Shown here piece by piece: positions 10,821-62,733 of a stretch of 64,000 nt of DNA. Position 1 is the stretch's first letter, and each line of letters starts with the position of its first letter. Made by a program: the position numbers and the translations under genes. The notes under the pieces are model-generated. The model saw nothing but the letters and a program-made list of their open reading frames with translations, made no database searches and was not told where the DNA came from. The DNA lies in contig OZ024752.1 of the NCBI GenBank assembly GCA_964016885.1, positions 28,086,001-28,150,000 of the forward strand, given 5' to 3'. The DNA is from Eledone cirrhosa (taxonomy: Eukaryota).

Positions 10821-11391
10821 TAGTATTTACGTATCGAGAAAGAGAGAAAAAGGAGGGATAGGTGATACATATAGTTATTTGCCAAGTAGCGTATGCCAAA
10901 GGTGCTCGATACTAGTGCCGGCAGTATTAAATATTTGAAGTGTTAATATTAAGTGGGCTAGAGAGTTAGCAGAGCGTAAGAACATGGGAAAGTAAATAAT
11001 CGGAGAATAGACCGTTAAAACATGTTTATTTAAAATATCACCTACGTACGTTTCGCCCAGTTGGGCTTCTCAAGGGCATAAATGATCACAAGTGCTCCTT
11101 ATATAGTTCGGAAAGAGTTTTGGGGGTTAAATCTACATCAAGATTCATTGCTCGCAAAAATATCTTGTTTTGATTTTGCAGCAGGTCAAGGGACCTGCAA
11201 AATCAAAACAAGATATTTTTGCGAGCAATGAATCTTGCTGTAGATTTAACCCCCAAAACTCTTTCCGAACTATATAAGGAGCACTTGTGATTATTTATGC
11301 CCTTGAGAAGTCCAACTGGGCGAAACGTACGTAGGTGATATTTTAAATAAACATGTTTTAACGGTCTATTCTCCGATTATTTACTTTCCCA
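10821..11391 (-). mobile_element. Penelope-like fold-back element with a variant hammerhead
   Basis: Inverted arms 10985-11181 / 11195-11391 plus an unpaired tail; cc-TTGAGAA-gccc-aact-gggc-GAAAC-GTAC-GTA-gg then AATAAA (11041-11076 minus, 11299-11336 plus). Confidence 0.75.
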
Positions 11392-11392
11392 C

Positions 11393-13244
11393 GTATATAT
11401 ATATATATATATATATATATATATATATATATATATATATATATATATGTATGTATACACATCCATATACATATATATATATACATATATATATACATAT
11501 ATATATATACATATATATATATATACTTATATACGTATATATATATATATATACATATATATATATATACACATATATATATACACATACATATATATAT
11601 ATAAAGATACATATACATATATATATACATATATATATACATATATATATATACACATACATATACATAAATATATACACATACATATATATATATACCT
11701 ACATATACATATATATATATATACACATACATATACATATATATACACATACATATACATATATATATACACAAATACATATATATATATATACATACAT
11801 AGACATATATATATATATACACATATATATACATATACATATATACACATATATACAAATATATATATATACACATATATATATAAATACACATACATAT
11901 ATATATATATATATACACATACATATACATATATATATACACATACATATATATATATACACATACATATAGATGTATCTATATACGTATATATGTATAT
12001 ATATATATATACATATCTATATATACATATATATAAATATATATATACACATATATATATACATATATATATACACATACATATACATATATGTATACAC
12101 ATACAAATACATATATATACACATATATATATATATATATGTATATTTATATATATACATATACATACATCTATATAAATATATACACATACATATATAT
12201 GTATATATATATATACGAACACATATATGTATATATACATATATATATGTATATATATATATATATATATATATACATATATACATATATATAAATATAT
12301 ACACATACATATATATATATATATACATACATATATATATATATATATATACACATACATATATATATATACATATATATATATATGCAAATACATATAT
12401 ATATATATATATATATATACATATATATGTATATATATATACATACATATATATATATATATGTATATAAATATATATATATATATATATATATATATAT
12501 ATATATATATATATATATATATATACATATATATGCATATAAATATATAAAAATACATACATATATATGTATATAAATATATAAATATATATAAATTTAT
12601 ATATATAATTACATACATATGTATATGTATATATATAGAGAGAGATACATACATACATATGTATATATATTTATATAGATACATATATATATATATATAC
12701 ATACATACATATGTATATATATATATAGATACATATATATATACATATACATACAGATGTATGTATATATATATATAGATAGATACATATATATATATAT
12801 ACATATATACATATATATACATACATATATATATACATATATATATACATATATATATACATACATTTATAAACACATATATAAACATACATATATATAT
12901 GTATATATACATATATATATGTATATATATATATACATATATACATATATATATATATATATATACATATATACATATATATAAATATATACACATACAT
13001 ATATATATATATACATATATATATATATATATACACATACATATATATATATACATATATATATATATATATATATATGCAAATACATATATATGTATAT
13101 ATATATATATATACATATATATGTATATATATATATACATATATATGTATATATATATATATATACATACACATATATATATATATGTATATAAATATAT
13201 ATATATATATATATATATATATATATATATATATATATATATAT
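11393..13244. repeat. Imperfect (TA)n/(TACA)n field with higher-order duplication
   Basis: Direct inspection; diagnostic variants recur. Confidence 0.95.
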
Positions 13245-14270
13245 GTAGGAGGTGAGTTTTATTGTAGTACAATAAAGCAATGCAGCTATCGGATAAGAAG
13301 CACTCTACAGTTTGTGGGACTGGAGTATGCATTATATAAGATCAAAAGATGGTTAAAGGAGTTCAATATATTTTATTATGCGCATTTCAAAAACAAACAT
13401 CATCAAACAATAATATTTGTGTTTTCATCAGATAAAACAGGAGAACATGATATGAAGGCTAAAAAAACACTTGTTGATAGTGCAGTTTTAAATCAACATA
13501 TGAAAAGTGGTTTTAGATTGATGTGTGATATTGGGAAAAATATTTTATTTAGAGAGGGGGGGGAGAGAAAAGGATGAAAAGGGAAGTAGATGAGAGGGAG
13601 AGATGGGTGATAGAGAGAAAGAGATAGTTTTTATAACTGAGAGGAGATATATTTTATATAGAGGGGTTGAAAACCGTTGGAAGATACTGTATAAATTAAA
13701 AATTTTGAAAATTAACGAAGGGAGGATATGTGCGAGGAAAAAACTATAAAAACTATCTCTTTCTCTCTATCACCCATCTCTCCCTTTCCACCTTCACTCT
13801 CATCTCCTCTCCTTTTTTTCATCCTTTCCAACCCCCCCCCCCTCCCTAAATATAATATATTTTTTCCTCGCACATATCCTCCCTTCGTTAATTTTCAAAA
13901 TTTTTAATTTATACAGTATCTTCCAACGGTTTTCAACCCCTCTATATAAAATATATCTCCTCTCAGTTATAAAAACTATCTCTTTCTCTCTATCACCCAT
14001 CTCTCCCTCTCATCTCCTTCCCTTTTCATCCTTTTCTCTCCCCCCCCTCTCTAAATAAAATATTTTTCCCAATATCACACATCAATCTAAAACCACTTTT
14101 CATATGTTGATTTAAAACTGCACTATCAACAAGTGTTTTTTTTAGCCTTCATATCATGTTCTCCTGTTTTATCTGATGAAAACACAAATATTATTGTTTG
14201 ATGATGTTTGTTTTTGAAATGCGCATAATAAAATATATTGAACTCCTTTAACCATCTTTTGATCTTATAT
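13245..14270 (-). mobile_element. Penelope-like fold-back element (family D) with a hammerhead in each arm
   Basis: Inverted arms about 13333-13743 / 13861-14270; unpaired tail 13245-13332; other copies at 23950-24262 and 56539-56626. Confidence 0.85.
14167..14233 (+). ncRNA. Type I hammerhead ribozyme motif (mirror copy at 13371-13437, minus)
   Basis: ttttat-CTGATGA-aaacacaaa...tttgtttt-tGAAAT-GCGC-ATA-ataaaa. Confidence 0.8.
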
Positions 14271-14705
14271 TATATATATATATATATATATATATATATA
14301 TATATATATATATATATATATATATATATATATATATATACATATATATGCATATAAATATATAAAAATACATACATATATATGTATATAAATATATAAA
14401 CATATATAAATTTATATATATAATTACATACATACATACATATGTATATAAATTTATATAGATACATATATATATATACATACATACATACGTATATATA
14501 TATATATAGATACATATATATATACATATACATACATATGTATGTATATATATATATAGATAGATACATATATATATATATAAATACATATATACATATA
14601 TATACATACATATATATATACATATATATACATATATATATACATACATTTATAAACACATATATAAACATACATATATATATATATATACATATATATA
14701 TATAT

Positions 14706-59865: not shown

Positions 59866-59916
59866 AGCTTCTACAGGACTAGTACTGTTTCATTCAGATG
59901 AAATCTTCAGGAAGCT
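59866..59916 (-). ncRNA. Canonical type I hammerhead motif in island 59779-60360
   Basis: Minus strand: agcttc-CTGAAGA-tttcatctgaat-GAAAcag-tactagtc-ctgTA-gaagct, followed by AATAAA. Confidence 0.85.
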
Positions 59917-60359
59917 GGGTGTCATATTAAGTATTTATACATTTAGGTAGTGGCAAGGGAGGGGTGGTGGATGGGGGGGGGGGGGTATTTAGATACACAA
60001 GACCACTTCATGGCACAGGCCGTTTTTTCTATGGGGAGTGGTCAATTAGCCAGAGTGCTTTTTTGAAATAAATAAATAAGTAAATAAATAAATAAATGAA
60101 TAAATAAATAGATAAATGAATAAATAAATAAAATAAATAAAGAAATAAATAAAAAAATAAAAACCCCAAGAATAGTAATTCAACAGATATATAGTAGGGA
60201 AATTTTTTAGGTGGGTTGGTAATAGAAATTAAACATTTAACAAGACCGAATCATGGCACAGACTGAGGTGAGTGGTCAAGTTAACATACAAGCCACAGGT
60301 GGCCAGAGTGTTTTAGTAGGATGGAAAGAATAAAATATATTTACATACTCACAACCACA

Positions 60360-61755
60360 TACAAAAACACTTACACACACACATACATATATACTTATAT
60401 ATATATACATACATATATACATATGTGTGTGTGTGTGTGCACACCTACACATTCACACACATATACACATACATATATATATATATATATATATATATAT
60501 ATATATATATATATACACACACACACACATGTGTGCGCATACACATACACACACACACATACATACATACACACACACACACATACACATATATACATAT
60601 ATACGCAGGAAAAACACAAACACACAAATATACACACACACACGCATACACATACACACACATATATATATATATATCTACACATACACACGCGCGCATA
60701 CACATACATATATACATATATATATATATATGTACATATATATGCATACATACATATATATATATATATATATATATATATATACACCTACAAGTACGTA
60801 TGTCTCTCTCGTGTAAACTATACTATACATACACATACATACATTTGCACACACATACATACACATACATACACACACACACAAACACATACATTCACAC
60901 ATATATATACATATATACACATACACACACACATATATAATCTCATATATATATATATACATATATATATATATATATATATATATATATATATATATAT
61001 ATACCCATACATATACATATATATATATATACATATATATATATATATATATATATATACATATATATACACATATACATACATATACATACACACACAC
61101 ATATATATACGTATATACATACACACGCATACACATTTACAAGCAAACACGCATACATACACATACATACATACAAATAAGTACACAAACGCATATGCAC
61201 AAACACGCACTCGTTCGCACTTATACATGTGTCTATAATATAAAGGTAGTGGGACAAATTTTAAATTTTAAATTTTAAACTGGGCCTGATAGAGGATTAA
61301 AATAATTAATGTCACTATTATATATACATATATATATATATATATATATATATATATATATACATATATATAGATATATATATACCTATATATATACATA
61401 TATATATACATACATATATATATATATATATATATATATATATACCTATATATATACATATATATATATATACATACATATATATACATATATATATATA
61501 CATATATATATATACATATATATACATATATATATATATATATATATATATATATATATATATATATATATATATATATATATATATATACATATATATA
61601 TATATATATATATATATATATATATATACATACATACATATATAAACATATATATATATATATATATATATATATATACATACATATATATACATATATA
61701 TATACATATATACGTATAAAGGTTTACATATATATATATATATGTGTGTGTGTGT
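60360..61755. repeat. (CA/TA)n microsatellite field
   Basis: Direct inspection. Confidence 0.9.
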
Positions 61756-62733
61756 GTTTTGCAACGGCTCACTTTGTGGCTCAATGAAGAGTTAATAAAT
61801 TAAATAATCAGAGCTATATATCATAAAACATGTCTATAGAATCCCCAGATAAAATATATACCGTTTCCTCTCCTAATTAGCATAATTAACCATATAAAAA
61901 ATCAATTAGACCAAGCTATAAGAATAAAGCTTCTATGAAGAAATCTCCGACAAATAACCGAATGCAGCCCTTCGCGGCCGTTGCGACGGAGTATTTATCT
62001 AGTATTTCCACAGCGTGTATAAATCGACCAGATATACAGTCAACTAAACAGAATTAGGTGTAAAATAAACTAGAAGAAAAGTGAACATATTTAGTTACCT
62101 CTACCATGGTTTCGTCCGCATTTTAAGATATCCGATAACATTGGAAATCTAGAGCACCGGACTCTTAAGGAGTTTGCTCAAATGTAATAATCTCCCGTTA
62201 GGTTGAGATACAATTTTGGCTGTATTGGGCTGCGCTTTCTAGCAAAAAGCCTACCAGCCGTAAGCAACTAATCATATCCTTTCTAACTTGACCGCTGCCA
62301 CGTCACGATTTTTAGCCATTTTTTAATGTATTCTTGGCGCGATCACTTTCGAAAATTAATTGACTAAATTTGAGCTAACTCCTGAAGAGTCAGGTGCTCT
62401 AGATTTCCAATGTTATCGGATATCTTAAAATGCGGACGAAACCATAGTAGAGGTAACTAAATATGTTCACTTTTCTTCTAGTTTATTTTACACCTAATTC
62501 TGTTTAGTTGACTGTATATCTGGTCGATTTATACACGCTGTCGAAATGCTCGATAAATACTCCGTCGCAACGGCCGCGAAGGGCTACTTTCGGTTATTTG
62601 TCGGAGATTTCTTCAAAGGAGCCTTTATTCTTATAGCTTGGTCTAATTGATTTTGTATATGGTTAATTATGCTAATTGGGAGAGGAAACGGTATATATTT
62701 TATCTGGTGAATCTATAGACATGTTTTATGATA
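61756..62733 (-). mobile_element. Penelope-like fold-back element (family R) with hammerheads
   Basis: Arms 61819-62183 / 62367-62733; plus-strand motif at 62379-62452: ctc-CTGAAGA-gtc...gac-GAAAC-CATA-GTA-gag; mirror 62099-62172 has a CATG loop and a mutated core. Confidence 0.82.

Follow-up and report, generated by a model that had tools for sequence, protein, structure and literature searches.

The window and its hammerhead motifs

The DNA described here, called the window throughout, is a stretch of 64,000 nucleotides (nt) from Eledone cirrhosa (contig OZ024752.1 of assembly GCA_964016885.1, positions 28,086,001 to 28,150,000; the assembly comprises 2,996 Mb). A mask for degenerate (TA)n microsatellite covers 33.7% of it and leaves 51 islands, and an earlier note on this DNA had placed about 20 type I hammerhead ribozymes, at 21 sites, in such islands. 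These hammerhead motifs are real, and the observation is confirmed. The reading that we favor, with a probability of about 0.88, is that they are type I hammerheads near the 3' ends of many families of Penelope-like elements (PLEs), mostly of Hydra type, together with tandem repeats without an open reading frame (ORF) that likely use the enzymes of these elements.

The features that belong to these families, labeled A to L, are given below in window positions. Numbers such as L044 or L256 denote other loci of the genome retrieved for comparison, pLTR stands for pseudo long terminal repeat, UTR for untranslated region, and the descriptor is defined in the next section.

11041 to 11075, minus strand: family A hammerhead with U3:A8 core, long arm of inverted insertion 10826-11388; found by descriptor; pLTR in L044
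11301 to 11335, plus strand: family A hammerhead, short arm of inverted insertion 10826-11388; found by descriptor
13369 to 13439, minus strand: family B hammerhead, long arm of inverted insertion 13251-14267; found by descriptor; pLTR in L255 and L261
14165 to 14235, plus strand: family B hammerhead, short arm of inverted insertion 13251-14267; found by descriptor
24078 to 24138, minus strand: family B motif, damaged by loss of the 5' arm and C3, within stub 23956-24259
24619 to 24706, minus strand: family C hammerhead with 45-nt stem II, in stub 24578-24791; 1.31-kb ORF-less tandem unit elsewhere
27156 to 27290, plus strand: family K hammerhead with a stem II of 104 nt, in a stub of the 3' end that stops near 27480
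27991 to 28062, minus strand: family D hammerhead; other copies have a Hydra-type endonuclease about 1.2-1.3 kb upstream
31128 to 31250, minus strand: family L hammerhead with 96-nt branched stem II, 3' copy of the 998-nt ORF-less partial tandem 30943-32317
32126 to 32248, minus strand: family L hammerhead, 5' copy of partial tandem 30943-32317
36262 to 36316, minus strand: family E hammerhead with U4C core, long arm of inverted insertion 36058-36695; Hydra-type ORF in L256
36609 to 36663, plus strand: family E hammerhead, short arm of inverted insertion 36058-36695
36856 to 37093, no strand assigned: family F 3'-end fragment without hammerhead, folded back on itself
38017 to 38059, minus strand: family F hammerhead with non-palindromic stem III, within stub 37809-38211; in other copies, a Neptune-like endonuclease lies about 243 nt upstream
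39269 to 39327, minus strand: family G hammerhead; its 468-nt unit has no ORF and forms the partial tandem 38986-39620
45751 to 46156, minus strand: inverted piece of the family K 3' region, matching 50358-50763
46183 to 51117, plus strand: 5'-truncated family K element with endonuclease remnant 46185-47229 (frameshifted), 3.9-kb 3' UTR and pLTR
50774 to 50928, plus strand: family K hammerhead with 116-nt stem II and 10-bp stem I; the minimum-energy fold forms stems I, II and III
55825 to 55871, minus strand: family E-related hammerhead with U4C core, diverged subfamily
56542 to 56620, plus strand: family B tail fragment without hammerhead
59073 to 59115, minus strand: family H motif damaged by a change at G8; an arm of inverted insertion 58957-59541
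59390 to 59432, plus strand: family H hammerhead; elsewhere a tandem unit of 428 nt, without an ORF and with TA tracts inside it
59866 to 59916, minus strand: family J hammerhead whose 14-nt stem III is nearly palindromic; pLTR in L380 of a Hydra-like unit of 4.25 kb
62099 to 62172, minus strand: family I motif damaged by a change at G5; long arm of inverted insertion 61760-62728
62370 to 62461, plus strand: family I hammerhead with 49-nt stem II; without an ORF of its own in the copies compared

Census and controls

Motifs were sought with a wide type I descriptor that accepts the cores CUGANGA, CCGANGA or UUGANAA, a stem II of up to 130 nt and a near-palindromic stem III. A first, strict version gave six matches in the window, five of them at sites already listed; it missed others because of the U3:A8 core of family A, the U4C core of family E, and stems II of 45-49 nt (C and I) or 96-116 nt (K and L). 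The wide version returned 17 motifs, every one at a listed site. An eighteenth, at 59866 (family J), falls below the stem II threshold, yet is intact by inspection, with a 6-bp stem I, and is conserved in 25 of 25 loci. Thus, 18 of the 21 sites hold intact hammerheads, in good agreement with the number and positions first proposed. Each has C3 U4 G5 A6 N G8 A9, G12 A13 A14 A15.1 and U16.1 H17 in type I order when the published U3:A8 and U4C variants are allowed. The other three (24078, 59074 and 62099) are damaged copies of intact families. Three helices with compensatory variation are present; stem I beside the core is just 2 bp in family A, and family L has a competing fold.

Sixteen motifs lie wholly inside non-microsatellite islands, against a mean of 0.13 (maximum 1) in 200 dinucleotide shuffles and 0.09 (maximum 2) in a second run of 300. 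Reversed and complemented versions of the window gave no descriptor matches, and three decoy cores gave one, one and none. Because the descriptor was broadened after the sites had been inspected, and so was tuned on the window, an independent genome sample is the fairer test. In 60 stretches of 10 kb, spaced evenly and shared among contigs roughly by length (599,800 bases in total), 59 sites were found, compared with 0.3 in 20 shuffles.

Rfam at gathering thresholds found no match of any family in the window. Family G reached 38.6 bits (E 1.9e-8) on Hammerhead_HH9, for which the threshold is 52; a gathering threshold is a library cut-off and not a defining property of a ribozyme. The E-value mode returned 907 matches, mostly microRNA models hitting microsatellite, with no hammerhead among the 150 listed, and was set aside.

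The more general statements of the earlier note held unevenly. Its roughly ten families are indeed multiple, and number 12, in 15 insertions. The motif was said to occur in most islands; between 10.8 and 62.8 kb, it occurs in 15 of the 44 islands of at least 60 nt (family J and the damaged copy at 24078 included), and the motif-free islands in this span are LINE (long interspersed nuclear element), SINE-like (short interspersed nuclear element-like) and other repeats. AATAAA, described as often following the motif, lies within 60 nt of the cleavage site in 7/17 motifs, from four families. Stem III, described as usually palindromic, is a perfect palindrome in 10/17; the commonest form is palindromic in families C, E, I and K, with family F as the exception (GAAC in 30/32). 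Finally, low-complexity masking had been proposed to hide the motifs. They sit in unmasked islands, and masking is therefore not demonstrated as what hides them.

Ties to Penelope-like elements

Judged by their sequences, families A, B, D, E and K, and probably J, are 3' pLTRs of Hydra-type PLEs, which encode a reverse transcriptase (RT) with a C-terminal GIY-YIG endonuclease, and family F appears to be a Neptune-like PLE end. Genome DNA searches with the window families scored the best 40 of 963-3,672 first-look candidates each; all 40 were matches in every search, and these figures are not copy numbers.

The full form of family K is a 6,673-nt tandem unit (L041, 1617-8289) with an 830-codon RT-GIY-YIG open frame and the hammerhead near its 3' end. 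For the K endonuclease of the window, 150 of 150 scored matches (the best 150 listed) were 100% identical. In L044, a Hydra-type ORF is bordered by family A pLTRs on either side, and family B flanks an 821-codon open frame in L255 and L261, whose sole named protein homolog, from Argonauta hians, is 38% identical. Family E terminates a two-piece ORF in L256, family J flanks the ORF of its 4.25-kb unit in L380, and family D has an endonuclease 1.2-1.3 kb upstream of the motif in seven loci. A single ORF with RT followed by GIY-YIG, and no N-terminal endonuclease, was found for A, B, D, E and K, the A, D and E copies being in pieces. Pfam support is weak (GIY-YIG, E 0.005, in family E alone).

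RWK-type, DKT, CxCx5C, CxxC and CxH motifs without CCHH form the diagnostic set of the Hydra clade (PMC8557442). RW[K/R/T], DKT, CxCx5C, CxxC and CxH, with no CCHH, are present in the A, B, D, E and K proteins (RWT in B, RWR in K), with gaps among the copies compared (no RW was seen in that of D and no CxH in that of A). The one broken J copy has RWR, DKT, YRDD, CxxC and CxH; CxCx5C was not seen in it. A Neptune assignment for the K endonuclease was dropped in favor of Hydra, to which the CxCx5C linker and the lack of CCHH point. In family F, the endonuclease lies about 243 nt upstream of the motif in most copies and has a CX4CxxC linker before its C-terminal GIY-YIG, within the CX2-5CxxC form of Neptune-type PLEs, whose GIY-YIG carries CCHH (PMC8557442); both internal GIY-YIG cysteines are present in L216 and one is replaced in L382. 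The one near-complete F copy seen is in two frames, and Nematis is also compatible. An N-terminal GIY-YIG, the Naiad trait, is absent: every linked ORF ends in an endonuclease upstream of the hammerhead. Besides family F, a further hammerhead family (12-nt stem II, GTAC stem III; L265, 346-1508) lies 438 nt downstream of a second Neptune-like endonuclease.

Family I has no ORF in the 0.8 kb common to its copies; its 775-nt spacing holds a 30-nt TA tract and may represent two insertions. ORFs near I and L in other loci belong to neighboring insertions and were rejected as I or L coding sequence.

The closest described relatives are Hydra-clade elements, including Hydra-1_Obim of Octopus bimaculoides (PMC8557442), which share the single RT and GIY-YIG ORF, the motif set, (TA)n insertion, the hammerhead close to the 3' end and tandem or inverted copies. 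However, units here are longer (B 3.9 kb, J 4.25 kb, K 6.67 kb, compared with generally <3 kb there) and have long 3' UTRs. At least six families with high copy numbers occur in one window, stem II extends to 116 nt whereas the Hydra hammerheads given there have short stems II, U3:A8 and U4C cores occur, and tails measure about 60-170 nt rather than 30-40 nt. Much is also shared with the PLE hammerheads described in 2014 (PMC4209133): stem III is palindromic, a genome holds many unrelated consensus families, copies are mostly truncated and solitary, pairs on opposite strands lie 100-700 bp apart, and both the U3:A8 variant and an extra base after A9 occur.

Insertion pattern

Each family has one or two fixed 3' ends, which border directly on (TA)n, and its motif lies in sense orientation 15-350 nt upstream of them. 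The order in full-length copies is pLTR-ORF-UTR-pLTR, and most copies are 5'-truncated stubs, often head to head. The polarity is apparent in the genome sample, where (TA)5+ occurs within 345 nt downstream of 51 of 54 motifs and upstream of 29 of 54, compared with 29% of random windows. Together, TA polarity and the ORF links uphold the idea of TA-seeking, ribozyme-bearing retroelements akin to PLEs and retrozymes.

Most families have two preferred 3' ends. Measured from the cleavage site, these are +60/+220 in A, +43/+132 in B, +56/+131 in C, about +45/+213 in E, +230/+300 in G and about +20/+93 in J. For example, the short arm of the family A insertion in the window ends 60 nt beyond the cleavage site and the long arm at 220. 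Inverted pairs with both ends measurable join a long to a short arm in 49/53 cases, in coding and non-coding families alike, and the rule spans ten families; from 71 head-to-head pairs in all, this count excludes the 10 of family H, which have a TA tract inside, and 8 in which an end was not measured. In many cases the end coincides with a few TA-like bases, as seen where a tandem copy shows the element's continuation. The identity between arms did not clearly separate one RNA template from two: of the 71 pairs, 38 exceeded the median identity to other copies and 14 equaled it.

Parts of this layout have precedents. A tail on one of two inverted pLTRs is known from Adineta Penelope (PMC3846280), and the Poseidon element PAc of Anolis carolinensis uses two internal RT start sites in vitro, with both target strands extended (PMC11167929). 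Two RT starts downstream of the hammerhead, a one-sided tail and AT-rich targets are thus shared with these elements. PAc differs in belonging to another clade; the E. cirrhosa insertions have longer tails, follow the long-plus-short rule in ten families, and often have ends that share a few TA-like bases with the target. The regularity of the two-end layout across coding and non-coding families may be new.

Long inverted arms could also suggest DNA transposons resembling miniature inverted-repeat transposable elements (MITEs), and a descriptor tuned on the window could suggest chance matches in AT-rich DNA. We give either explanation hardly any weight. Motif counts far exceed the shuffles in both window and genome sample, the arms end unequally and are variably truncated at the 5' side, and the links to RT-endonuclease ORFs already refute it.

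Scale in the genome

The genome sample yielded 66 matches at 65 sites, 59 of them scoring at least 16, in 31 of the 60 stretches. This amounts to 0.98 motifs per 10 kb (about 98 per Mb; bootstrap 0.67-1.32), and extrapolation from the 60 stretches gives an estimate of about 2.9x10^5 motifs genome-wide (2.0-3.9x10^5). The density of roughly one motif per 3 kb first suggested is close to the truth for the window (one per 3.6 kb), but the genome average is sparser, at one per 10 kb. Motif count tracks microsatellite content (Spearman 0.50 over the 60 stretches), and the window is therefore about three times richer than average. All loci together form 35 clusters, 26 with at least two distinct sequences, a lower bound from loci biased to the searched families; the family D cluster is the commonest in the sample (15 matches).

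For comparison, 126,247 hammerheads are reported for the axolotl and more than 6,000 for a coral (PMC7229834), and PMC4209133 describes thousands per genome (about 9,000 in Xenopus tropicalis). Our estimate exceeds the largest published count found, that of the axolotl, although the descriptors differ and the comparison is therefore indicative only. No cephalopod hammerhead census turned up in the literature searched, namely openly readable papers and the main texts of preprints. A 2026 repeat annotation of Octopus vulgaris has Penelope families, and the word 'ribozyme' appears nowhere in its main text (PMC13282606). The scale may be new.

The correlation with microsatellite could have another origin, namely that the elements make or carry much of it rather than merely land in it. 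Degenerate TA/TG repeat makes up 1,772 of the 6,673 bases of the K unit (within the 3.9-kb 3' UTR) and about 730 bases of J, and H units hold TA tracts. Against this, the K copy at 46183-51117, whose 3' UTR holds about 1.6 kb of microsatellite, contains 1,598 of the 21,537 masked bases of the window (the sole element so measured), families A, B, D and E carry almost none, and TA lies on both sides of stubs, as insertion into a tract predicts. We regard this origin as unlikely.

Tandem families without open frames

Families C, G, H and L look like ORF-less tandem repeats resembling retrozymes. Their units measure 468 nt (G), 428 nt (H), 998 nt (L) and 1,309 nt (C), their longest M-started frames run to 20-95 codons with no tblastn match, and their GC content is 0.32-0.40. 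All four thus show tandem non-coding units of low GC with one type I hammerhead each, as retrozymes do. When compared with the retrozyme unit length of 150-450 nt, H fits, G is marginal, and L and C lie outside.

Family G forms an array of seven copies on one strand in L266. In four public runs, none of the 36 variable places listed for it falls in the 59-nt motif, where about three would be expected if they were evenly spread. The sequence also occurs in runs of two other organisms (shares 0.39 and 0.30), each covering the motif with one contig among those listed. Near a family C copy, at a distance of about 2.5 kb, lies a host exon resembling that of a two-pore potassium channel (L395, 1102-2148; Ion_trans_2 neighbors).

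Families G and H share with animal non-LTR retrozymes (PMC7229834; 10.64898/2026.07.22.740005) the ORF-less 428-468-nt tandems, GC below 40%, one hammerhead per unit and co-occurrence with PLEs, and a U-U mismatch at the stem II base occurs here as in the axolotl HHR_Amex2. In contrast, C and L units reach 1.0-1.3 kb, the arrays are known from DNA alone, they have the inverted PLE layout and end in (TA)n, and G and C have two fixed ends.

Near-identical units in the G and H arrays, and partial tandems of 998 and 1,309 nt, are what one would see if cleavage and ligation first gave monomer circles that serve as obligatory templates around which the RT runs, and circular RNAs have been demonstrated for coral and other retrozymes (PMC7229834). 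This route is compatible with the PLE reading but would make cleavage essential. Tandem read-through transcripts account for the same DNA layout, however, and unprocessed RNA was the dominant PLE substrate in vitro (PMC11167929). We consider the circular route a possibility of some substance, if less than an even one.

Core variants, stem II and stem III

Among the 59 sampled motifs, stem II spans at most 17 nt in 11, 18-40 nt in 30, 41-70 nt in 10 and more than 70 nt in 8. Helix II in PMC4209133 has 6-8 bp, whereas more than 40 nt separate the core halves in 18 of these 59. The motifs at 27155/50774 and 31128/32126 had been candidates for half-cores; they close with stem II arms of 96-116 nt, the range of families K and L. 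A family with an 81-nt stem II also lies downstream of a Hydra-type endonuclease (L342), and none of the long-stem clusters compared was linked to a Naiad. Published PLE motifs include loops 2 of 29-34 nt. A mammalian hammerhead is split by several hundred nt (PMC6765202), and no paper on such long arms in PLE hammerheads was found in the openly readable literature. The long-arm architecture may be new.

Covariation of stems among genomic copies, which the earlier note took as a test, is present in part. A K relative (L061, L336) swaps C3:G8 for U3:A8 and changes both sides of two stem I pairs; in the K alignment, 91.6% of cells are paired (reached by 0/500 shuffles) and three pairs have double changes (37/500 shuffles). 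Between L and its relative L367, two internal hairpins are kept, the stem II base changes from U-U to G-C, and the stem III palindrome is altered at four positions and still palindromic. The compensatory changes in K come from a single relative lineage. A further candidate relative of L (L380, 7740-7879) did not match in the alignment and was dropped.

PLE hammerheads have been proposed to act as dimers (PMC4209133, PMC6765202). In our computations, stem III forms self-duplexes of -3 to -10 kcal/mol in 14/17 motifs and a monomer hairpin in 0/17. The U3:A8 core was found in 10 of the 59 sampled motifs, from several unrelated families (clusters 12, 16, 17, 21 and 34), and U4C in 49 of 52 family E motifs.

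This prevalence of U4C, the non-palindromic stem III of F, the alternative minimum-energy fold of L and the low in vitro activity of minimal PLE hammerheads (PMC4209133) would also suit a fold kept as a protein-binding or packaging signal, with little or no cleavage in several families (E, L and F). However, at least 26 multi-member clusters whose stems are unrelated retain the catalytic positions, the swap from C3:G8 to U3:A8 included, which suggests selection on active-site geometry. We think a mere binding signal improbable.

How the system may work

Under the PLE reading, the GIY-YIG domain would cut both strands of a (TA)n tract. Both DNA ends would then serve the RT as primers, each starting at one of two fixed internal positions that lie downstream of the hammerhead, and TA-like pairing over 1-5 nt probably assists. 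Where copying stopped early, hammerhead-bearing stubs would remain, each of which, with its TA flanks, could provide more target. The hammerhead lies upstream of both 3' ends and therefore does not define the inserted ends; it probably trims tandem precursor RNA, either as a dimer through the palindromic stem III or aided by the element's protein, and such trimming may give circles for the short non-coding families. These ORF-less families likely use the same enzymes. Perhaps the long stem II acts as a protein-docking or cleavage switch.

Several points weigh against this reading. The helper of C, G, H and L was not identified by sequence, since they have no nucleotide match to seven autonomous elements, and clade calls were made by protein motifs, without a tree including reference sequences. 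The PLE tested in vitro needed protein for hammerhead cleavage, cleavage was dispensable for insertion, and RNA sequencing showed no ends at its hammerhead site; PAc also primed without target homology, unlike the TA-like junctions here (all PMC11167929). U4C, fixed in family E, lowers in vitro activity (PMC3088659), the predicted consensus fold of L forms neither stem I nor the stem II base, and the K covariation comes from 2 of 11 rows, with a weak pair-count control. Two further points qualify the inference of the earlier note: motifs are about three times as dense in the window as in the genome on average, and the system is of an already described kind (PMC8557442, PMC4209133). Hydra-1_Obim, with its (TA)n preference and hammerhead, was published for Octopus bimaculoides (PMC8557442), and U3:A8 cores, opposite-strand pairs and palindromic stems were published in 2014 (PMC4209133). 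Hammerheads, palindromic stem III, the U3:A8 core, inverted pairs, one-sided tails and (TA)n targeting have all been published previously.

Because the class is already known, scale and testability are what give the findings value. Should the estimate prove right, ribozyme motifs numbering on the order of 10^5 escape standard Rfam annotation in a single animal genome, and published censuses made with short-stem descriptors may be underestimates. A bolder proposal joins three parts: the largest hammerhead population counted, at about 3x10^5 or one in every 10 kb; in a sizeable part of it, an undescribed rod or multi-hairpin stem II of 80-120 nt, under selection in currently amplifying Hydra-type elements and their passengers; and evidence of two-end priming. 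We put it forward tentatively, with more doubt than confidence. If it is true, long-plus-short ends across ten unrelated families are genomic evidence for a PLE RT priming from both cut (TA)n ends at two set RNA sites. The young, intact K and B elements and the matching non-coding passengers offer material on the role of the PLE hammerhead and the origin of inverted, tailed insertions. Long-arm hammerheads might also account for the 'half-core' motifs of other PLE clades, a link that was not found here.

Other repeats in the window

A near full-length LINE of L1/Tx1 type occupies 16941-22776 on the minus strand, with a 1,121-codon frame (17259-20624; endonuclease, RT and zf-RVT) and an upstream 289-codon frame. 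An RT-bearing LINE fragment lies at 33462-35593 on the plus strand (RVT_1, E 9.5e-32), and two 3' fragments similar to it lie between TA tracts at 15642-16460 and 57278-58139; we take all three to be CR1-like. A 556-nt repeat is present in three TA-flanked copies, 92-99% identical (14710-15265, 23177-23735 and 62785-63089), in which no hammerhead was found. A small family of GC-rich fold-back repeats sits in TA tracts at 51273-51423, 51765-51971, 52625-52775 and 45575-45752; its match to Rfam Plastid-psbJ-2 (70.8 bits), absent at gathering thresholds, is spurious. Finally, a SINE-like repeat of about 180 nt occurs in six copies, 76-89% identical, at 691-872, 1512-1678, 4745-4940, 6770-6952, 28187-28373 and 44450-44639.

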